DNA from: Eledone cirrhosa
Taxonomy: Eukaryota
Length of the DNA stretch: 64,000 nucleotides
Direction of reading: 5' to 3'
NCBI GenBank assembly: GCA_964016885.1
Contig: OZ024740.1
Coordinates: forward strand, 89,094,001 to 89,158,000
A model generated the notes under the pieces. The model saw nothing but the letters and a program-made list of their open reading frames with translations. It did not search any database and had not been told where the DNA came from. The translations under genes were made by a program, and so were the position numbers. Below are positions 12,676-57,524 of this stretch, piece by piece; position 1 is the first letter of the stretch; each line of letters opens with the position of its first letter.

Positions 12676-13110
12676 TTATGTAATATTCGGCTTGTAGTGG
12701 GAAAAAAGGGTTTTAGTTCTGTGACGGCAGAATAATGTTCGTTCAATTCTGTTATTCAGCAGTTTCTTCTTGTGTGTGATTATGTAATAAATCTCAAGAT
12801 TATACAATTTGCAGAAATTTTGGCTCCTGGAAAAGCTTTGGGTTTTAGCTAATTTGTCCCATTTTAGGGTAAACTTTTGATCGCTATCCCTGAGCGTCCA
12901 AGCTTTTTCTGCTAAAGTTGTTACATTTCTTTGGCTCTGGTGTTTTATTGAGTAAGAATACCTATACAATCGAGATTTAAACGATGTTGCCGTTGATCCC
13001 ACGTAATACCACTCGTTGCCTCCGGATTTAATGGTACACTTATAAATAATATTTTTTTCCAGGCAGTTATTGCCGAGGGGGCAGTTGTCAGGATAGGTGC
13101 AGTTACAGTT
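12676..13110 (-). pseudogene. PLE GIY-YIG endonuclease with Cys-rich linker
   Basis: IIY...YVG motif and conserved R; ORF 12676-13002 plus upstream in-frame sequence. Confidence 0.8.
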
Positions 13111-13329
13111 GTGTACGTTGGGTTTTCTCTGGAGTAGTATTGCGGACGAACTTGGGTGTGGTTTATTTATGTTCTGTAGTGTATTGTCTACTGTTTTTTT
13201 TTTGTGTTCTTTGTACTTAAGTTTTTAGTGTTTTCGTTTAACCTTCTAGTATTGATCTTTTTTATGTGTTGTTCAAGGTTTAACGCTGTAGAGTATGACA
13301 GTCTTTATATTACAACACAACGGAAAATA

Positions 13330-13809: not shown

Positions 13810-16800
13810 TTAATTGTAAGTTGTGATTTTGCTGTTCCACTCATGTTTTCTATTTAATTTTGGTTGTAATTCTTTTATGTTTATTGCCTCTGTGATTTGT
13901 CTAAACATTGCGTCTTTTCTGTGTGTAGATTCTATTTTTATTTCTATCTTCTCTAATTTACCCTTGTGTTCTATTTTAGCATATAGGTAGAGTACAGATG
14001 ATTCTTTACTATCTTGAAGGTCTCGCCAGTGTTCATGTATCCGTTCCCCTACACTACGAGCTGTCTCACCTATGTACACTATATTTTTGTCTGTACATTG
14101 TCCTTCAGTAGATCTTATGCTATACACTACATTTCTAGTTTTACAGTTAATATGGGGGCTTATTTTACAGGTTATACATTTCTTATCTATACATGAGGGT
14201 CTTTGAGAAGGGTATGTCTTGCTAATAAGTGATTTTACGGAGGTACCTGGTCTTTCTACTATCTTAATTTTGAGTTTATGTTTATTTAGGGCCCTCTAAA
14301 TGTGTAAGCTAATTCACCTCTAGGGGTTGTATCGATGAACATTACACTCTGGTATTTATTGCTATAATACCATGAGTTTATTCTATCAGCCTTGTTCCTA
14401 GTTCTTTCTATTCTATTCCAAAATTTGCTCCTATACAAGGGGCAGTACCCATTTATGTCATTATTTACCATTTTTTCCCAATTGGTTCTGGCTCCTCTAT
14501 ACACTCTGATTTTATCTCTCTGATTGTAGCCAGAGAACTGCATACGGTGGATGAAGTGTTTTATGTGTCTCTCTAGTTCTTCGGGGTTGCACATGCGGGA
14601 CACATTTCTCATCACCCGTACTAAATCCTCAATCAGTATGTTGATTTCGGTATGGTCCGAAACGGCCGAGTTTCGGTGGATCAGATGTTTGGAAGTCATG
14701 GGTTTGGCATAATGGGAATGGAGGATTTGTTTTTTGTTATTAATGGTATCTAACCAGAGCTCTGTGTCTGGTACAGGTAATCGATGGTTGGGGTGTTTAC
14801 TTGGGTAGTCTATAGTAACTCTAATGCTCTGGAGGATGGAGTTAGCTATTTGCTGGATGCTTTCCATTGTTTTTTTTTTCTAGTTCCTGACTGTTCTCTA
14901 GTGGGGGTGTCTTAACTACGATGTTTATATCATCAACGTAGCGGGAGTACATTATCAGGGTTAAGGGGTCTTCTAATTGTTCTTTAAGTTTAAGTTTAAG
15001 TCTACTGTCCCACCATACCATGAATAAGTTAGCTATGTCGCCTGCAATGCTAACACCAATGGCTGCTCCTTCCTCTTGGGCATATGCTTTTCCATTAAAT
15101 TTGAACATATGTTCCTTAAGGGTTAATTTTATGCTGGCCCCTACCGCATGTGCAATCATTTTATTCAGTTCATCGTGGTTTTCGGGTGTCCGTATGACTC
15201 TGGTCCACCCGTTCCGTCTATCTGTGTGGGTTTTCTTGGCCATTGAGGTAATGGTAGGTGGTCTGCCTCTTGCTGGTTTTGTAGGGCACAGGTTGCTAAG
15301 GTCATATGTGTCTAGGTAATTATTACTATCAGTAAGTTTAAGTAGGAGTCCCAGCTCATTGGTATCAATCCCACGGAACTCAACATTGCTCTCACTGATC
15401 ATTTCTACGCATTTCTCTCCACAGCAAAATCCACGTCAATAGATGGATACAGGGACACAACATCCATACTATCTATTATGCAGTTTGTTAGGTCCCTAGA
15501 TCGGTTACTCACGCCGATTCTGCCGAGGAAGTCCTCTGTGCTGTCACATACATCTGGGGACATTTCAATGATGGGGCGTATGATCAGGGAGAGGAAGTAG
15601 GACAGTCTGTAGTTACTAGCAATGTTAGCTCCACAGACTGGCCGTGTTGGTGGTCCCGCGACAGGGTCACTGCCCGTTTTATGGTCTTTTCGAAGCCCAT
15701 ACAACGCCGGCACGTCTTTGTTCCAGGCCTGGAAGTTGTTGGCAGTCCTTTTGATGGGCTGCATTATATTCGTCCACATCACCATATGGGCATTGAGGGC
15801 TTTTTCTCTATCCTCATGCTCCTGTGGTGTTACCTCTCTTGTGTTAGTGATGTGAGGTTGCATTGCCTGGATGTAGTTTGGCAGGCTGTCAACCGACATT
15901 CTGCCAGACTTGTCTGTTGGAAAGCATGCTATCTCTCCATTACGCGAGCGCTGCATGAGCTTACGCAAGCCATTTGCAGATTTTTCTCCCAGTTGCTGGG
16001 CCTCCATTCTATTATGCTTCTTGCTATACTGTTCTATACTATTTCTAAGTTCGGATCTAGCTATACTAAATTGTGCTTCTGTTTGTTCATCGACTTGCGA
16101 CGGCAATTGGGTGCGTTTGTTAAATGGTAGAGTCGTGGCGTGGACCCGTCGCAGGTCGAACGATTTATCGGAGGGATTATAAAACGTAGAGTTCCAGGCT
16201 GCTGCTTTATATGTACTAGTGCTATTGTTATTGTTAGTTGTGTTGTTTCTATTTCTATTTCCACCAACAGCCTCATGGTTGTTTCTATGTCTCTCATAAT
16301 TACTCCTGTCTCTTTCCACTGGCTCATTGTTGTTATCTACCCTATTTTGTGTGTCCGTGTGTTCGTCTTGGTTATTTTCTTTGTCCTTAGTCTCCCTTCT
16401 CCTTTTAATCCTATGGCTTTCCCTTATTTCTGTGATTTCTGTGCTACTGTCATTACTTGTTCTCTGTTTCTGTGTGTTTGTTAAGATTGCGGTGGTGCTG
16501 GGAGGCATTGAATGTGTGTGTGTTGTTGTTGTTGATGTATGCTGTTGTTGATGTGTGTTGTTGTTGTCTCCGTGTGTGTTATTATTGTTGTGTGTGTTGT
16601 TATTGTTGTTTGTGTCTGCGTGTCTGTTGTTGTTGTTTCTGGGTATGTTATTATTGTTGTTGTTGTTGGTGTGTGTGTTGTTGCTATTGTTGTTTGTGTC
16701 TGTGTGTCTGTTGTTGTTGGGATGTGTGTTGTATATGTGTGTGCGTATATTGTTGCTTTTGTTTTTGTTTTTGCTTTTGAGGCTCCAGCGTAGTTTTGTA

Positions 16801-17549
16801 AATGATTTTTCTATTTCTGACAGACAACTAATCATATTTACCTTCTTGAATGTCGCAAATCGCGGGGGCAGACATAATACAGATAACTCATTGTCATCTA
16901 TTATTGTTTTGCCGTATATATTTGTGTTGTTGTTGTTGTTGAACTCATCCGTTAATGAGGTGTCGGCCATATTTATACCGTCAATTTTGTCGGGATATCT
17001 ATTGGTATTCTCTATAGTATCCTGATTTAGCGTTATCTGCTTAAGCCACTTTAGTTTCTTGTTAAAGTGCTTATCACATTCTTGAGTAATGTACTGTTCT
17101 TCAGGACGTATAAGGCTTATAAATATTAGTTTCTCTCTCGGTGTGGTGATCCTAGCTATTTCTTGTATTAGGTTTCGCTTATGTTTTTCTTGATGACTTA
17201 ATTCTCTATAGATCTTCTTTTTTATGTTTAGAATTAGTGTTCGTTTTAGCCTATCTGCTTGTTTTTTGGTGAGTTGTAATCTTCTTACGTCGGTGTTGAT
17301 GGTGTTGGTGTAAACTCGGGACGAGGCACATTCTTTTATGAAGTGTAGTTGTCGAGATGTTATGGTTTTTCGTAGACAAAAGAACATGGTGGTTTTCAGT
17401 ATCTTGTTAGCCTGGCTAAGGCTTACGATATTTCGTTTCTGAATTTGTTTAGCAAGATTCTTTATCTGAAATCGTGTGTTGAAACCGATATTGTTATACT
17501 TTGGGAGGGTCATGTTGCCAATAAGAAACACACGCACCAGTGCTTTCAC
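13810..17549 (-). pseudogene. PLE polyprotein split by frameshifts (ORFs 15405-17549, 14842-15402, 14286-14867, 13810-14127)
   Basis: PTDKSGR, LYGLRKDHK, PPTRPVC, DVVSLYPSI, GAAIG, RYVDD, HYAKPM; GIY-YIG VYIGETARSVGERIHEH. Confidence 0.92.
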
Positions 17550-17639
17550 TTCAATTTATTATAATAAATTTATAAATTTATAAATTTATAAATTTCTGGT
17601 TGGTTGGTTGGTTCCACAACCAGATAGTTGTTTATATAT

Positions 17640-29597: not shown

Positions 29598-32500
29598 CTA
29601 CAGGATGGTATACAGAGAAGGCCCATTTACACGAGCCATTCTCGCCACTATCACCCACCTTTCATAAAACTGCCTGTGGCCAAGCACCTCTCTCTCCATT
29701 CTTATCCTTCTTTCGAAGTGATATCGGAAGAAGTAGACCAGACTCTGGCCAGAGAGGAAGTTGCCTGACCTCAGACCTTTCAATCGTGTCCACCAAACAA
29801 CCTCTTTCAACATGGCTATTACGCACAGAAAAACCGCTTTTGCTTCCTTTGTGAAGAGGGGAGGCGGCTTGATTGTCATCACGGACTCGACGGTCAATTG
29901 AATCGGCGCCACCCGCGACAGCAGTCGTTCGGCGTAGCCCCACATATCAGCCACGCCCGGACATTGCCCCAATGCGTGCGCAACGGTTTCTTCGTGACGC
30001 ACGCATCTAGGGCAAATCCTTTTTGAGGGATCCCTGCCCGGGCGCCCGTGTCTGTAGAGCCTCTCTCGAACGGGTAGAGCCCCTCGGTAGCACTGCCAGG
30101 CCAGTGACTTCTGGAAGTTGTCCATTGGTCCTGGGCCGAAAGTCCTACCGAACAGGCTGGCGAGTTCGTCTTCCTCCATGTCTAGCGACTCTCCAATGGT
30201 GTCATCGCCCCTGCTAGCCACCAGCCCTCTATAGAATGATGAGGTGGATTCTCCACCGATGGCCTGGCCCGCTTGCCAGAGAGCCCTGAGCGCCTGAGCA
30301 CACTCAGTGTGCCAGTCTCCCAGTTTTCCGGATCTTTGCTTGACCCAGGACTGTAGCTCGGTGAGCGAGACGAGTCTCGGAAAGGCTCGTTTCACGAACG
30401 GAGCCCACACCGGTTGACCAGTGAGGAAAACCTGTAGGTGCCGTAGCCTTAATGCGTGCCTACGCATCATCAACCACGGCATCCCCAGCCCTCCTTTCGA
30501 AGGTTGTTGGCAGCAGATGGATCTTCTCACTATAGGAGGGCGCTTCTTCCAAAGAAATTGGAAGAGCATGTGTTCCATGGTGGTGAGTGTTTCCTTAGGG
30601 CAAGGCACGACAGTCAGGCGGTAGTAAGTGACGGACGCTATGTAAATGTTCGCCACCTCCGCCCGGCCTTTGAGGGACAGCTTACATTTGGCCCATTTCT
30701 GAGTTAGTGCAAACACCTTGTTCGTAACCTAGTTCCAGTTCTTTTCCACCTGGAGGTCCGGTCCAAACCAGACCCCAAGCAACTTTACCGGGCCCTCCGT
30801 CCAGTGTCCGACGACACCGTCGGGAGGCATCGGTCTGCCTCTCCACGTTCCGAGTTGCAGCCCGATGGATTTTTCCCGGTTCAGTTTCGCTCCTGACAAC
30901 CTTTCGTAATCCTCCAGTAAGGTACCGATCGCCTCGATCTCCGAGTCGGTCGATACCATTACTGTTACGTCATCGGCGTAGGCCGACACCGCTCGGCTCA
31001 ATCCTGGTTCCAGGGGGATACCCTGCAACAACTCCAACTTCCTCAGTAAAGGCTCGAGAGTCAATACGTACAGAAGGGAGGAGAGAGGGCACCCCTGTCG
31101 AATGGATCGTGTGATTTCGAACGGCTTCGAAAGGTAGCCGTTCACCTTGATCCTATAACAGATGTGGTTGCGATGTAAGGCAGTGATCCAGCCTCTGATA
31201 ACAGGACCGAACCCAGCCGCCGCTAGCACCGCATCCAGGTAACCATGGTCGACCCTATCGAAGGCCTTAGACTGATCCAAGTTGATCAGGGCCCCACCGA
31301 AGCCGGGTTTGTTGCTAACCCTCTCTATGATGTATCGCATGAGGTGGAGGTTATCGTGAATGGACCTGGATGGGATAGCACATGTCTGCGCATCTCCCAC
31401 CAGGCCACCCACGACAAGCGCCAACCTCTTTGCTAACACCTTGGCCAAAATCTTTAACTCTGTGTTTAGCAGGGTTATGGGCGGAAAATTATTTATACTA
31501 TCTCCCTTGTTCTCGTCCTTCCTCACCAGCGTGACTACGCCCTTGGCTACAGAACAAGGAATTCTCCCGTTCTGCTGCCAATTGCAGTAGACCGCTTCGA
31601 GGAGTTCGGAGAAGAAGACCGGCATTGCTAAATAAAGTTCGTAAGGTATACCATCGAGACCTGGACATTTGCGTCTGCTGCATTGGCTCAGCGCATCTCC
31701 GATCTCATCAGCCGAGATTGGTCTCTCGCAGGACTCTGCCTCTTCACCCGAGAGACGCGGCAGGCCGTCGAGGTATGGACCGAAATCCACGCCCCCGCCC
31801 GGACCCTCGCCTCCCCCGAACAATCGGGAAAAGTGCCTTTGAAAGGCCTCGCACATCTGCTTAGGCTCCCGGATCACCCGTCCATCTTCATCTTGCAACG
31901 ACCGGATGGTGGATCGATTTCCACTCTTAGCTTCTGTCACGCGGGCCCAGCCAACGGCCTTGGCCCCCTCATTACCTAGAGCACGTATTTTACTTCGAAT
32001 GACGCAGCCTTCGTGCTTTGCATCGAAAAACTGGTTCAAGGCCGTCCTCGATGCCAGCACTCTGGCCACATCTTCGCTCTTGATTGCCTCTTCTAATTTA
32101 CCTGTTAATTCTTTCTCGTTTCTATTCCTATCGGCAGCTAACATCTTGCTATAACTTATTGATTCTGTTTTAATCTCTCTTTTGAGAGATGCCCACCATC
32201 GGTTGTTGACGATTGCACCCGTCAACCTCTCCTTAACTAATCTGCTAATCCGGTTTCTGTAAGTCTCTTTTTCCGGTAAAGACAAATTAAGTTTCCAGTA
32301 ACCGGGACCCTGTTGATGTGTTTTCTCGAGATTGACTACGCAGGTCACTAATTTGTGATCCGTGTAGCCAACCGTGCGCATTTCTGGACAGCTTAATATG
32401 TCCCTATCCTTACTTCTAACTAAGAATCTATCTAAGTACGATCTAGATTGACCACTGTGGTTTCTCCAAGTCCAGGTAGGCACAGTTGGAAAATCTAGTC

Positions 32501-33035
32501 GATATCTATCGACCAAGTTAAAACGGTCGAGTAACTCCTTGAGGCTGTTACACCCCCCTCTATTAGGACATGCTCCTGCATAGTCCCAACGTGCATCTAG
32601 GATGTCATTCCAATCCTCCGCTAGAAGCAGGGAACGCGACGTTCCCAGAAAAGTCTCTAAACGCTGGAAGAAGTCGGGCCGTTCAGCTCCGAAAGGGGAG
32701 TAGACGGCGACCAGTCTTAAGGCCGCACCTTCACTACTACCAACGTCTAGCACCAACAAACGAACCTCCGGGTCCGAGTGCACAGCCTGTACGGCAAGAC
32801 CCAGGTGTTTTTGCAGCAGTACGACAACCCCACCCCCACCTCCAGGTTGACAGAGAGATGCATGCACCTCAAAGTCATCGAAGGTAGGGGCCAGCTGCCG
32901 CACGACGCTGATCCGAGTCCCACAGATAATCATTACATTTATACCACATGACCTGAGGTCATTTAGAAGCTTTGCTTGCTTCCAAGTTGAGCCCAGGCCA
33001 CGTGAATTTAAACATCCTACTCTTAACACATCCAT
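29598..33035 (-). pseudogene. ORF2: APE endonuclease, RT and zinc finger, with one in-frame stop at 30729
   Basis: NSRGL, SYLDRFLV, TDHKLV, PGLDG, DQSKAFDRV, IRQGCPLS, YADD, CPRC...ETVAHALGQC. Confidence 0.95.
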
Positions 33036-35055
33036 GTGGGCTGCAGAGCCAAAGGAGAGTGTAGAGACCTACCTTTCCGCTTCCCGGGGTTCGGGTCGCA
33101 CGACTTCCATGGGTCGGGGGTGTTGGGTGAAGGGGTGTCTTGTGGTGGTGTGGGGTCGTCAGCGTGTGGTGGGGTTGGGGTGTTTGGAGTTGTGTTGGGG
33201 AGGGGAAGGGGAGGGGAAAGCTTTTTAGTAGGACGCGGTTTATGGGTTTGACAGAGGGTGGTCCTACGTCCTCCTTAAAATCCTTTTTTAGTTTTTGGTA
33301 GAGGTTCATTGGGATCTTTATTAATTTTAAATGTGGGTAGTTTTCTGAAGAAACAAAGTTTACTCCTTCGGTTTGTACCGAAGGATTATTGTTTATGAGT
33401 TCATTTAACTTATTATTGTTTCTGTTGATGTAAGTATAGTGTAATGTCTTTTTTTCGGATGGTGTGAGTGTTTCGAAGAGGGGAGGGGAAGGTTTGGTTT
33501 TGTTTGTTGCTGGAGGGGTGTTTTCTGTTTTGTTGGATTGGGTTGCGATTTGGGTGGGGGTTGTTTGGCCTTGTGTGTTTTGCACATGTTTTCTTTTTTT
33601 CCTTTTAATCTGTCTGAAGGACTCCGTTTCTTCCTCCGAATTCGTTGGGTTATCTTCAGTGTTGGAGGGAAGAGGTATGTTTGCTGGTAATGTTTCCGTG
33701 TTGGTTTTCTTTGTGGGGGAGATGGATGTCACTATGTTAGACTGTGTTGTGTGTTGTGTCTGCGGTGGTTGTGTTGTTTTATTGAGTGAGGGGTTGGGTG
33801 GGCCTGTATTTTGTTTTGGGGTAATGTGTTGTGACTGTTTGTGTTGTGGTGGTGGTGTAGTTTTACTGAGGGACGAGTTGGGTGGGACTGAGTTTTGTTG
33901 TTTGTTTATCTGTTGTGGTGGTGGAGCTGGTGTTGGTAGCAGGGTTTTATTTTTGTTGAGTTGGGGACAAGCAGCCTTCAGGTGTCCTCTGCCTGCACAG
34001 ATATGACAGGACGGCCTTCTCCCCCCCCCCCACGCTAATGTTTATATACCCGTGGCCCTCTAATAGGATTCTGTCGGGTATTTGGGCGATGCGTTCAGGC
34101 TTCATTTGCACTACCAGCTCTATTCCTATTCCACTGAACGCATTGCCTGTGGTTTTCCCAATGGAAATCACGTTGTCATTCACTGGATCGATGAAGCCAG
34201 CTATGAGCCAGCAGTAGTCCACATCTGGCATCATTGCATTCAGCCATATGCGTTGAGTTCTTTTACCCATATAAGATCGATAAAAGGTAAAATTTTTCGA
34301 ACGAATCGGTGACAAAGCACATTTTTTTGCCGCCGATTCGTTCTTCATGATAATTGCTAGGCTTCCATACAGTCTGTCTTTTCTTATGAAAGTGGTTTCA
34401 TTAAGTACTTCTGTGAGTACTGTTTTGATATCTGCTTGAGAAGGCTGTTCAGGTTTTTTTGAAGTGTTGTTAATGGTGCGGAACACGACCGTTCGACTTT
34501 CAATGTCTTTGGTGAGTTCTTGAGGCATTTTTACCGATAAAATACCATTCTCTCCTTCACTTATGTATTGTTTGGCGTCTGTGATTCTTCGTGCCACATC
34601 TGAAATATTTTCGGCTACATATGTCAAAGATTTCTTTGTTGTTTGTGCAAATGAAATCTTGACTCTGTCGTCTGCTTTGCTTTCTGTTATGGTGTTATTT
34701 TCAAATGTTATTTTTGTGTTTGTTGTGTCTTTGTTTGTGGTGTTAGTATTGTCATGCAATTTTTCAAATTTTTTTTTTCGTTGTTGGAATCCATGTCCAG
34801 ATTTGTGTTTTCATCATTTATTTTCTCCGCAGATTCGTCTGTTTTTATTTTAATTTTTCCTTCCTTCTCTATGACGTTAGTTGGGAAGGAAAGGGGGACT
34901 AAAGCGTGCGAGCTTACAACTCTTACCGCTGTCCCCCCACCACTATTTTCGTTCTCTTCGTTTAACATTTCTGTCAGCCGATTGAACTTTTTTGCCACAA
35001 AATTTTTAAAAATAGGTTTTTCACCTCTAGGAGGGGTAAAGATGAGCTGACCCAC
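32959..35055 (-). pseudogene. ORF1 (frameshifted) with CCHC zinc knuckle
   Basis: ORFs 34708-35055, 33947-34759 and 32959-33732; after the C-run at ~34025 the alternate frame reads CHICAGRGHLKAAC. Confidence 0.8.
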
Positions 35056-52995: not shown

Positions 52996-53274
52996 AGTTT
53001 ATGTTGGTTGTATACCAACACCTCAGTATGCAGGCTGGAGCACTCAACGAAGTGCGCAGGTTGGTTTGGTTACTCCGGAGTAGTGTAAAATAAAGTTAAA
53101 TAAAAGTCAAATTAAGTATTGACAATATCATACACCTAAACAACATATGTACTTGTCTATACCATACTAATTCAAACTGCCTGAAGAGGTCACAGCCAAA
53201 GATGGCTGTCACTGAAATATATATAGCAGTAATAAACGAAGCTAAATTTTAATCATTTGACTTTTATTTAACTT

Positions 53275-53306: not shown

Positions 53307-53448
53307 GTAATATAATAATAATTATATTATTTATATTTATATATACACTATATACACCTACAAAAAGAAAGCAATTTATTACTACCTTATTACCGATAAG
53401 AAAAATACCTCAATGTAAATACATCAGATGTTTTACAGACCAGGAATG

Positions 53449-53791
53449 TAAATTACACAATAATCAAAACTATGTTCACATTATTTTATTGCTGACAATC
53501 GTTTCTTCCAAACTTTCGTTTGGAATTCTCGGAGCACTAGCAAAGTTTGGACATATAATTAACTTTCTATTCAACTGAAGATATATAGATACATGGATAT
53601 TAATGTTGTCAACAATCATATAGATACATGGATATTAATGCTGTCAAGATTAATATCCACGTATCTATATGATTGTTCAGTTGAATAGGAAGTTAATTAT
53701 AAGTCCAAACGTTGCTAGTGCTCCGAAAGTTTGGAAGAAACGATTGTCAGCAATAAAATCATTTGAACATAGTTTTGATTATTGTGTAATT

Positions 53792-53793
<2 letters not shown>
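53449..53793. mobile_element. Fold-back palindrome with HHR-like motif (53490-53536, minus)
   Basis: TGCT / CCGAGAA (degenerate core) / TTCCAAAC-gaaa-GTTTGGAA / GAAAC-gatt-GTC / AGCA; the right arm has a deletion in stem II. Confidence 0.7.
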
Positions 53794-53871
<78 letters not shown>

Positions 53872-54420: not shown

Positions 54421-54455
<35 letters not shown>

Positions 54456-54457
<2 letters not shown>

Positions 54458-57097
54458 TAATTTAATATATCAGCTAACATAGGCGCACAGATGCACGTCC
54501 ATGCCAGCAAATACACAGGTTATGTCATAATACCTAGGTGGTTCAATGCAGGAGGGTGCAGAACAATAATATAAAAGACGTAAGATAAGAAAATATTTTT
54601 TAAAAAAAATTTTTTAAACATTTTTTTTACTTACTTAAATTTTCACTCCAACTAATTAGTTTCTGCAATGGGATAAAGACAGTTACGTAATCCAACTGTC
54701 GAGAATTCATTGCGTCATCAGGGAGTCTATTCTCAGCTGAGTCTCCAGGCAATGCGCGGACACTGGCGGCTCATATAAAAATAATAATAATTCGGTAGAA
54801 AGAACAGCTTGCGAGGACTGGATTCTATGTACTGAAATTCTCACTGCTTCTAGTCAAATGGCCGATTCTAAAGAATCAATCACGTGACACAGAGGCTAGT
54901 TAGAAGGAATGGGATGGTAAGATGACTGACGCCTACTAACACCCCAAAAAAAATTTAGAAGTGGTTTTGGCAGGTTTGCTCGACAAATCAGTGATTTGGA
55001 GATAAATATAGATAATTTAATATATCAGCTAACATAGGCGCACAGATGCACGTCCATGCCAGCAAATACACAGGTTATGTCATAATACCTAGGTGGTTCA
55101 ATGCAGGAGGGTGCAGAACAATAATATAAAAGACGTAAGATAAGAAAATATTTTTTAAACAAATTTTTAAAAAATTTTTTTTTACTTACTTAAATTTTCA
55201 CTCCAACTAATTAGTTTCTGCAATGGGATAAAGACAGTTACGTAATCCAACTGTCGAGAATTCATTGCGTCATCAGGGAGTCTATTCTCAGCTGAGTCTC
55301 CAGGCAATGCGCGGACACTGGCGGCTCATATAAAAATAATAATAATTCGGTAGAAAGAACAGCTTGCGAGGACTGGATTCTATGTACTGAAATTCTCACT
55401 GCTTCTAGTCAAATGGCCGATTCTAAAGAATCAATCACGTGACACAGAGGCTAGTTAGAAGGAATGGGATGGTAAGATGACTGACGCCTACTAACACCCC
55501 AAAAAAAATTTAGAAGTGGTTTTGGCAGGTTTGCTCGACAAATCAGTGATTTGGAGATAAATATAGATAATTTAATATATCAGCTAACATAGGCGCACAG
55601 ATGCACGTCCATGCCAGCAAATACACAGGTTATGTCATAATACCTAGGTGGTTCAATGCAGGAGGGTGCAGAACAATAATATAAAAGACGTAAGATAAGA
55701 AAATATTTTTAAAAAAAAACAGTGAGAATTTCAGTACATAGAATCCAGTCCTCGCAAGCTGTTCTTTCTACCGAATTATTATTATTTTTATATGAGCCGC
55801 CAGTGTCCGCGCATTGCCTGGAGACTCAGCTGAGAATAGACTCCCTGATGACGCAATGAATTCTCGACAGTTGGATTACGTAACTGTCTTTATCCCATTG
55901 CAGAAACTAATTAGTTGGAGTGAAAATTTAAGTAAGTAAAAAAAATTTTTTTAAAATCTTTTTTAAAAAATATTTTCTTATCTTACGTCTTTTATATTAT
56001 TGTTCTGCACCCTCCTGCATTGAACCACCTAGGTATTATGACATAACCTGTGTATTTGCTGGCATGGACGTGCATCTGTGCGCCTATGTTAGCTGATATA
56101 TTAAATTATCTATATTTATCTCCAAATCACTGATTTGTCGAGCAAACCTGCCAAAACCACTTCTAAATTTTTTTTGGGGTGTTAGTAGGCGTCAGTCATC
56201 TTACCATCCCATTCCTTCTAACTAGCCTCTGTGTCACGTGATTGATTCTTTAGAATCGGCCATTTGACTAGAAGCAGTGAGAATGTCAGTACATAGAATC
56301 CAGTCCTCGCAAGCTGTTCTTTCTACCGAATTATTATTATTTTTATATGAGCCGCCAGTGTCCGCGCATTGCCTGGAGACTCAGCTGAGAATAGACTCCC
56401 TGATGACGCAATGAATTCTCGACAGTTGGATTACGTAACTGTCTTTATCCCATTGCAGAAACTAATTAGTTGGAGTGAAAATTTAAGTAAGTAAAAAAAA
56501 TTTTTTAAAAATTTTTGTTAAAAAATATTTTCTTATCTTACGTCTTTTATATTATTGTTCTGCACCCTCCTGCATTGAACCACCTAGGTATTATGACATA
56601 ACCTGTGTATTTGCTGGCATGGACGTGCATCTGTGCGCCTATGTTAGCTGATATATTAAATTATCTATATTTATCTCCAAATCACTGATTTGTCGAGCAA
56701 ACCTGCCAAAACCACTTCTAAATTTTTTTTGGGGTGTTAGTAGGCGTCAGTCATCTTACCATCCCATTCCTTCTAACTAGCCTCTGTGTCACGTGATTGA
56801 TTCTTTAGAATCGGCCATTTGACTAGAAGCAGTGAGAATTTCAGTACATAGAATCCAGTCCTCGCAAGCTGTTCTTTCTACCGAATTATTATTATTTTTA
56901 TATGAGCCGCCAGTGTCCGCGCATTGCCTGGAGACTCAGCTGAGAATAGACTCCCTGATGACGCAATGAATTCTCGACAGTTGGATTACGTAACTGTCTT
57001 TATCCCATTGCAGAAACTAATTAGTTGGAGTGAAAATTTAAGTAAGTAAAAAAAATTTTAAAAAAATTTTTTTTTAAAAATATTTTCTTATCTTACG

Positions 57098-57103
<6 letters not shown>
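54456..57103. repeat. Tandem array of a 555-bp unit that switches orientation at ~55720; both ends in (TA)n
   Basis: Unit starts at 54456, 55011 and 55566; inverted phase at 55721, 56276 and 56831. Confidence 0.97.
55840..55921 (+). ncRNA. Type I hammerhead in each 555-bp unit (+: 55840, 56395, 56950; -: 54645-54726, 55200-55281)
   Basis: ACTCC / CTGATGA / GCAATG...CATTGC (inner GACAGTT/AACTGTC hairpin) / GAAAC-TAATTA-GTT / GGAGT. Confidence 0.87.
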
Positions 57104-57139
<36 letters not shown>

Positions 57140-57142
<3 letters not shown>

Positions 57143-57524
57143 AGAATATTTTCGAAACAGCGAGCGTGTTTGAAATTATTATAAATGTAAGCTATCGCCG
57201 TATTTTGACTAAAGAAATTAAAGAAATTATTTAGCCTGATAGTAGGGTTAAGAACCCTCGGAGAAATGGAAAAAAGACGAGTATTGACGTACATGGGAGT
57301 CGAACCCACATCTTTGGTTATCCAGACCACTGTGCTACCATTTAGACCAACACATCATGATGTGTTCGTGTAAACAGTAGCACAGTGGTCTGGATAACCA
57401 AAGATGTACGTCAATACTCATCTTTTTCCATTTCTCCGAGGTTTCTTAACTCCACTATCAGGCTAAATAATTTCTTTAATTTCTTTAGTCAAAATACGGT
57501 GATAGCTTACATTTATAATAATTT
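57140..57524. mobile_element. Fold-back element with a tRNA-like head, between (TA)n tracts
   Basis: Inverted arms spanning 57173-57524 centred at CATCA|TGATG (~57357). Confidence 0.8.
57286..57356 (-). ncRNA. tRNA-like sequence (pseudo-tRNA or SINE head)
   Basis: Acceptor stem GATGTGT/GTACGTC, A-box TGGTCTAAATGG, anticodon arm TGGT-ctggata-ACCA, T-arm TGGG-TTCGACT-CCCA. Confidence 0.7.

Follow-up and report, generated by a model that had tools for sequence, protein, structure and literature searches.

A pair of head-to-head tandem arrays with a repeat period of exactly 555 nt occupies positions 54456-57107 of the 64-kb stretch of Eledone cirrhosa DNA analysed here (the window). It belongs to a dispersed family of non-coding insertions into (TA)n tracts in which every dissected locus with two starts combines one arm from each of two fixed starts, A and B, and each start is followed by a bulged hairpin that also lies behind the starts of Penelope-like elements (PLEs) of the Hydra clade. 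An insertion with one A arm and one B arm is likely to be the product of one event, and it is on balance probable that a Hydra-clade RT/endonuclease generates it by copying an RNA, probably a circle, with priming on both target strands. The main interest of the locus lies in the pairing rule and the hairpin and not in the inversion itself.

The 3' ends of both arms, in the sense of the ribozyme, point outward into (TA)n (Table 1). A preliminary description of the locus had counted about 2.3 units on the left and about 2.5 on the right in head-to-head order, which the measured 2.28 and 2.50 units bear out, and had called the units almost identical; apart from an A/T tract, the single variable site among all units at the locus is 56285. 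The TATA-like word at which it saw both outer ends meet (TA)n corresponds to an ATAT overlap at each start. The unit is non-coding, as had been noted, with a longest ATG ORF of 43 aa and no RT or GIY-YIG ORF, and is thus not an autonomous PLE. GC content is ~34% in the region, the locus has no LTR, PBS or PPT, and the folding of the unit beats 100 of 100 shuffles (z -4.15). Judged by genomic criteria, namely tandem type I hammerhead units, the lack of an ORF and membership of a dispersed family, the locus is a non-LTR retrozyme. Unit positions are numbered from the first base 3' of the predicted GUU cut (window position 55917).

Table 1. Features of the two-armed locus, in window coordinates
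Feature	Position	Strand	Remarks
Left (TA)15 target tract	54426..54455	no strand	
Start B	54451..54463	-	unit ~195-199; used by left arm; ATAT overlap with TA tract
Left arm	54456..55719	-	2.28 units, ~1,264-1,268 nt
Hairpin A, 3' of start A	54541..54564	-	copies 55096-55119 and 55651-55674
Type I hammerhead motif	54645..54726	-	predicted cut after 54650
Hairpin B, 3' of start B	54978..55002	-	copy 55533-55557
Type I hammerhead motif	55200..55281	-	predicted cut after 55205
Head-to-head junction	55717..55720		unit ~41-43 vs 359, within A/T tract
Right arm	55720..57107	+	2.50 units, 1,388 nt
Type I hammerhead motif	55840..55921	+	predicted cut after 55916
Hairpin A	56002..56025	+	copy 56557-56580
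Hairpin B	56119..56143	+	copy 56674-56698
Type I hammerhead motif	56395..56476	+	predicted cut after 56471
Type I hammerhead motif	56950..57031	+	predicted cut after 57026
Start A	57095..57107	+	unit ~77-81; used by right arm; ATAT overlap with TA tract
Right (TA)18 target tract	57103..57138	no strand	

The exempted tract consists of 40 nt of A/T runs (55937-55976 and four other copies) whose sequence is different in each of the five units while the length stays the same; across the family its length likewise tends to be constant within a locus. This variation looks like A/T boundary hypermutation after insertion, and the idea that the tract records RT errors was rejected, since the youngest locus (L037) shows hardly any variation in it. 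The surroundings of the locus contain further traces of mobile elements. The locus is adjoined by a palindromic, tRNA-like element (57140-57524) that has its unequal ends at TA tracts and looks like another two-armed PLE-type insertion, in this case of a tRNA-derived SINE. Just to the left are a far and near pair of F5 ends together with another short head-to-head element (53005-53266, 53446-53796). Elsewhere the window contains a Hydra-like endonuclease fragment and broken PLE-like RT frames (12697-13185, 14286-17555) as well as a LINE-like RT at 29598-33068.

Five type I hammerhead motifs are present, two in the left arm and three in the right, each with a GUU cut triplet and a stem III that holds the 10-nt palindrome ACTAATTAGT. 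They were identified via the catalytic core and folding and fall below the Rfam gathering threshold, at which no hammerhead is reported and the sole match is to the adjoining tRNA-like element (57285-57356). In eight sister sequences 97% of stem cells are paired and one stem II pair occurs in four Watson-Crick forms, while the basal pair of stem II is a C-A mismatch in 8/8. Stem III can be drawn as two pairs and a loop, or as a predicted inter-unit duplex of 10 bp with -9.0 kcal/mol, and by this palindrome the dimeric hammerhead suggested in the preliminary description is possible. To judge from the sequence the core is intact, and the weak GUU triplet and the C-A mismatch may slow self-cleavage. 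Among Xenopus retrozyme dimers one of nine is reported as cleaved in vitro in the available part of a preprint (10.64898/2026.07.22.740005), and PLE insertion in vitro is described as independent of RNA cleavage in the text available of PMC11167929.

A 25-nt hammerhead motif has 4,367 exact matches in the 3.0-Gb genome (reversed control 0), far from a chance occurrence, and a 17-nt motif common to the sister subfamilies has 12,359 (control 0). The first 100 matches of the former represent 59 loci, which suggests by extrapolation some 2,600 family loci if the ratio of matches to loci holds. The 4,367 matches are distributed as 2,483 on the plus strand and 1,884 on the minus strand. The loci dissected comprise the 59 in chromosome order, 34 best hits including the study locus and 20 loci of sister subfamilies, four of which gave no alignment; the duplicates L063 and L066 were removed before counting. 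Identity across the family spans 70-100%, and divergence averages 0.60% within arms, 0.86% between arms and 6.0% between loci, with the nearest other locus often as similar as the units inside one locus.

The outer ends of the family fall at two fixed starts only, 81 nt past the predicted cut for A and ~197 nt past it for B. The two are ~120 nt apart and each consists of an ATAT-containing word that overlaps the TA tract. In the chromosome-order set 38 of 59 loci have two starts and all 38 pair A with B; the same 38 of 59 carry an inverted, adjacent, 5'-truncated copy in head-to-head orientation, and the remaining 21 have a single start (11 A, 10 B). With the A+B loci of the best-hit set (15/34) and the sister set (3/20) the rule covers 56 of 56 two-start loci, A+A and B+B being absent. 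The preliminary description had read the arms as permuted multimers that start and end at different phases. The two outer phases do differ from each other, but both are fixed family-wide and take no values other than A and B, so the ends are not permuted. Fixed ends shared by all genomic copies had been named in that description as grounds for refutation; the outer ends have them, the inner junctions do not. As fixed outer ends are the signature of the two-start 'tail' of PLEs, they refine the proposed model and do not refute it. Both flanks are (TA)n and a target-site duplication is therefore not scorable there.

The caller used for these counts is motif-based. It scores some two-arm loci as single-start (L053, L049, L055, L059, L051, L087), and in L049, L055 and L059 the second arm starts at 94-104, inside hairpin A. 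Apparent B+B pairs at L089 and L117 and an A+B pair at L064 were AT-rich false matches that disappeared with motif-based calling. The arrangement of the A+B loci in the 59-locus set is uneven, with 26 having A on the left and 12 having B. Between the element and the TA tract, (CT)n of at least 8 nt is found at 13 of 70 B ends (for example L032, L042, L093 and L106) and at 0 of 75 A ends, and the 9-nt word of start B is present four times in L106; the (CT)n and the repeated word suggest slippage or re-initiation at the start. The single-arm loci L079, L104, L112 and L114 are truncated at or near a common internal ATATAT word (~180-190) that abuts the TA tract.

The pairing of a near with a far start extends to six further families, of which four are linked to an ORF, where it accounts for 23 of 23 pairs under a strict caller, with F4 left out and with pairs that have a long intervening TA tract dropped except for the Neptune-type family Nep187. 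Six near+near calls given by a loose caller were traced by eye to internal TA-like words, and the strict caller gives none. Since Neptune-type families that lack the Hydra-type hairpin also obey the one-of-each rule, the rule is not specific to Hydra.

The hairpin lies 7-9 nt 3' of each start and reads Y-T-C-Y, inner stem, R, a two-base bulge (TC, TT or TA) and G-A-R. A strict descriptor of this order matches the unit only at 86 and 203, with no antisense match and a shuffle mean of 0.06, and it is satisfied by 164 of 183 internal copies of hairpin A and 128 of 137 of hairpin B, counts that are not de-duplicated. Folded as a circle, the unit has predicted pairing probabilities of 0.81-1.0 in hairpin A and 0.53-0.93 in hairpin B, and two stem positions that are T-A in hairpin A are C-G in hairpin B.

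The near starts of F1-F5 and F11 carry the same hairpin, and with a relaxed inner stem it is found at the far starts of F1 (6/8), F2 (8/9), F3 (5/8) and F5 (4/6). The strict descriptor misses all of these far hairpins, in which the inner stem is short, as well as nine of ten F1 near hairpins, in which the inner part is too long. Its relaxed form matches the 3,851-nt F2 exactly twice, behind both starts, and the unit four times against a shuffle mean of 0.39. Behind the ribozymes of F6-F10 no such hairpin was found. Of six Hydra consensi in print, as far as their sequences are available (PMC8557442), three, from coral and sea cucumber, show the hairpin when read by eye, a count made without the relevant end of Hydra-1_Amil: the 3' end carries it in Hydra-2_Amil and in Hydra-2_Ajap, Hydra-1_Ajap has it twice before the ORF, and it is doubtful in Hydra-1_Crog and not evident in Hydra-1_Obim. 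F1 (L242-L249) contains a hammerhead, both hairpins and an internal tandem repeat, with no long ORF in the 3-kb loci around the far hairpin, and may be a second non-autonomous passenger.

Unlike the outer ends, the inner junctions have phases that spread across the unit, and of the variable phase for which the preliminary description had advised a survey of other loci this is the part that holds. Sixteen of 48 junctions are scorable, that is young enough and outside the A/T tract, and overlap by at least 1 nt in 15 and by at least 2 nt in 10, against null values of 0.46 and 0.17. The junction of the study locus lies within the A/T tract and displays no clear microhomology. An inversion could in principle come from misassembly, or from DNA rearrangement of a plain tandem array at a later time, and either can be regarded as extremely improbable: the inverted loci of the family invariably face head to head, their junctions are distinct and their ends are A+B, and one junction is present on two separately assembled contigs (L039 and L066).

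The inverted arm could also be created by fold-back and self-priming of one strand, as proposed for rotifer Penelope elements in the text available of PMC3846280, which also reports palindromes at their inverted junctions. In the present family 34 of 48 loci have lengths compatible with this route and four of 48 junctions are mirror-symmetric. Fold-back would, however, nest one arm inside the other, and in 14 of 48 loci neither arm is contained in its partner; the study locus is one of these (1,388 vs ~1,264-1,268 nt), so that simple fold-back cannot make it. Nor does it account for the fact that the second end, without exception, falls at the other start, which has a hairpin of its own. Fold-back is therefore not the general route, though it may occur sometimes, and as an account of the family it is very unlikely. 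The preferred reading, in which two cDNAs are primed on opposite (TA)n strands by a PLE enzyme and joined head to head, is what the preliminary description had put forward, and it finds support as part of the whole, with the same fair probability.

The arms themselves bear on the nature of the template. Among 136 arms, 74 are longer than one unit and 13 exceed three units, with a maximum of 2,404 nt, and their 5' ends do not pile up near the cut site (5/136 vs 2.5 expected). Of 203 copies, 197 have an exact cut-site junction and the remainder single substitutions, with no indel, in loci that were selected on the motif. A cleaved linear monomer was on these grounds rejected as the main template. 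Across the units of each locus 476 variants are common to all, 131 are private to one and a single variant occurs in a subset; in columns covered on both arms (23 loci) there are 80 private variants and one that is shared across arms, and no column is fixed differently between the arms in the six loci compared. Arms of one haplotype together with read-through of the cut site favour a circular template, and the sequence pattern favours repeated passes over one monomeric circle, with very young linear multimers less probable. The earlier proposal of a multimer-generating template, probably a circle, is to this extent upheld.

Two-site priming of both strands could instead draw on a linear multimer that is left uncleaved after transcription of young tandem copies. 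The accessible text of PMC11167929 gives unprocessed RNA as the dominant substrate of a PLE in vitro, and nearest-locus distances are as low as those within a locus. The single cross-arm shared variant against 80 private ones speaks against such a source, and no array exceeds ~4.3 units per arm among 93 family loci; with arrays capped at this size linear copying would shrink them in each generation, yet identity spans the full range given above. A linear multimer is thus considered rather improbable, and the circle is retained as the preferred template.

The candidate partner enzyme is represented in the same genome by F2, an abundant young autonomous PLE with 81 scored copies at 93-100% protein identity, many of them with frames near 745 aa. 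F2 has a hammerhead in 28 of 30 loci, and its motifs RWR, DKT, CxCX5C and CxxC are those that define the Hydra clade in section 11 of PMC8557442, as far as its text is available. The ORFs of F3 and F5 are 43-60% identical to that of F2. The family is fused to Hydra elements without a TA tract in two loci. In L049 an arm begins at the F2 far start and runs into the unit at the equivalent hairpin position, a junction that occurs once in the genome, and in L103 the ribozyme end of an F5 copy has given way to a sister unit. No autonomous PLE with a pLTR homologous to the unit was found among 50 GIY-YIG or long-ORF loci, 30 F2 loci and 20 sister loci, and tblastn of the sampled DNA, a small part of the genome that includes the Hydra fragments, returned no homologous pLTR. 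As no such element was found, it is a structural motif and a pair of fusions that point to the Hydra clade as partner. A hairpin behind both starts and a (TA)n target are terminal cis features that the unit shares with Hydra pLTRs, and the two fusions hint that a Hydra protein may use it as a template.

A Neptune-type or other PLE might mobilise the unit instead, with the hairpins inherited from a Hydra pLTR ancestor and left unread. In L065 and L086 the unit is fused to the 3' end of Nep187, which lacks the hairpin, and both (TA)n targeting and the pairing rule hold for Neptune-type families as well. Against this, both hairpins are kept at a fixed distance from the starts across diverged sister subfamilies, and the Nep187 fusions are no more than ~6 nt from its own TA-tailed end, as a nested insertion with loss of the tract predicts. 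All four fusions (L049, L103, L065 and L086) could be nested insertions with deletion. Mobilisation by a Neptune-type enzyme is accordingly held to be unlikely, and a Hydra-clade enzyme remains the preferred partner.

It is proposed that read-through transcripts would self-cleave, perhaps as dimers, and then be ligated into a 555-nt circle. Two enzyme subunits, arranged as a Hydra-type dimer, would bind a single RNA molecule at hairpins A and B; each would nick one (TA)n strand and prime at the UAUA-like word just 5' of its own hairpin, and the RT of each would roll for up to about four rounds. Microhomology would join the 3' ends of the two cDNAs head to head, and single-arm loci may represent events in which only one subunit yielded a product. 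Cleavage, the circle, the dimer and the partner enzyme are the components of this scheme that we infer; the anatomy, the pairing rule, the hairpins and the haplotype pattern are observed directly in the sequences.

A more general proposal is offered tentatively and has somewhat less than an even chance of being correct, namely that Hydra-clade PLEs integrate as a dimer on two hairpins that cross phyla, priming 7-9 nt upstream of each and serving one strand apiece, and that the retrozyme is a circular RNA that has kept both, its insertions recording two simultaneous rolling-circle RTs. If true, this would explain the tail and the inverted copy of PLEs, whose origin is listed as unresolved in the available text of PMC8557442, and would identify both the enzyme clade and the signal behind the movement of animal retrozymes. 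Two-strand (TA)n insertion of non-coding cargo would then be steered by a small, portable RNA signal. What the family offers is a pairing rule that can be counted and a candidate cis signal whose stem shows compensatory changes, in a genome where young Hydra ORFs are abundant.

Earlier publications already describe retrozymes as well as the inverted copies, tails, (TA)n targeting and paired internal RT starts of PLEs. In the literature searched, which was mostly non-subscription, no description was found of inverted retrozyme insertions, the strict one-of-each rule or the hairpin, and the hairpin is not described in the available text of the Hydra section of PMC8557442. Metazoan non-LTR retrozymes are reported as non-coding tandem units of low GC with one type I hammerhead each, which have no LTR, PBS or PPT, co-occur with PLEs and are proposed to have a circular intermediate; these statements come from accounts available in part (PMC7229834, PMC7761336, 10.64898/2026.07.22.740005). 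Retrozyme repeats are described there as having no conserved motif that hints at the partner (PMC7761336), and the case for the enzyme that moves animal retrozymes has previously been based on co-occurrence and pLTR homology. The present family differs in having a full PLE footprint, a Hydra-type hairpin pair and (TA)n flanks in which a target-site duplication cannot be scored. Inverted arms, fixed starts and insertion anatomy are not described in the accessible parts of the published retrozyme accounts.

EN+ PLE insertions, as portrayed in the text available, bear a 5'-truncated copy in inverted orientation and, at one end, a 'tail' (PMC3846280, PMC8557442), and the head-to-head inverted copy, the two alternative 3' ends and the (TA)n targets of the present family are alike. 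Here, however, the element is non-coding, both arms are multimeric, the tail is ~120 nt against 30-40, fold-back is excluded for 14 of 48 loci and the rule is strictly one of each, whereas the published tail is termed 'optional' or 'often one end'. With the Hydra clade, both as published in the accessible text (PMC8557442) and as represented by F2, F3 and F5, the family shares the (TA)n target and a canonical hammerhead. It also shares with F2, F3 and F5 the order of ribozyme, near start with hairpin and far start with hairpin. It differs in that the unit has no ORF and, beyond the hairpin, no alignable similarity to the F2, F3 and F5 pLTRs.

The Anolis Poseidon PAc in vitro, as described in the available text, likewise uses two internal RT starts, has both strands cut and extended and is predicted to act as a dimer, but its starts are close together in an AC-rich stem-loop and have no homology to the target (PMC11167929). 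In the present family ~120 nt separate the two starts, which share ATAT with the target and are each followed by a hairpin of their own. L1 twin priming also involves two primers, head-to-head inversion and microhomology at the junction, and its second primer anneals at variable internal sites. Here, by contrast, both starts are fixed and either can give rise to the long arm.
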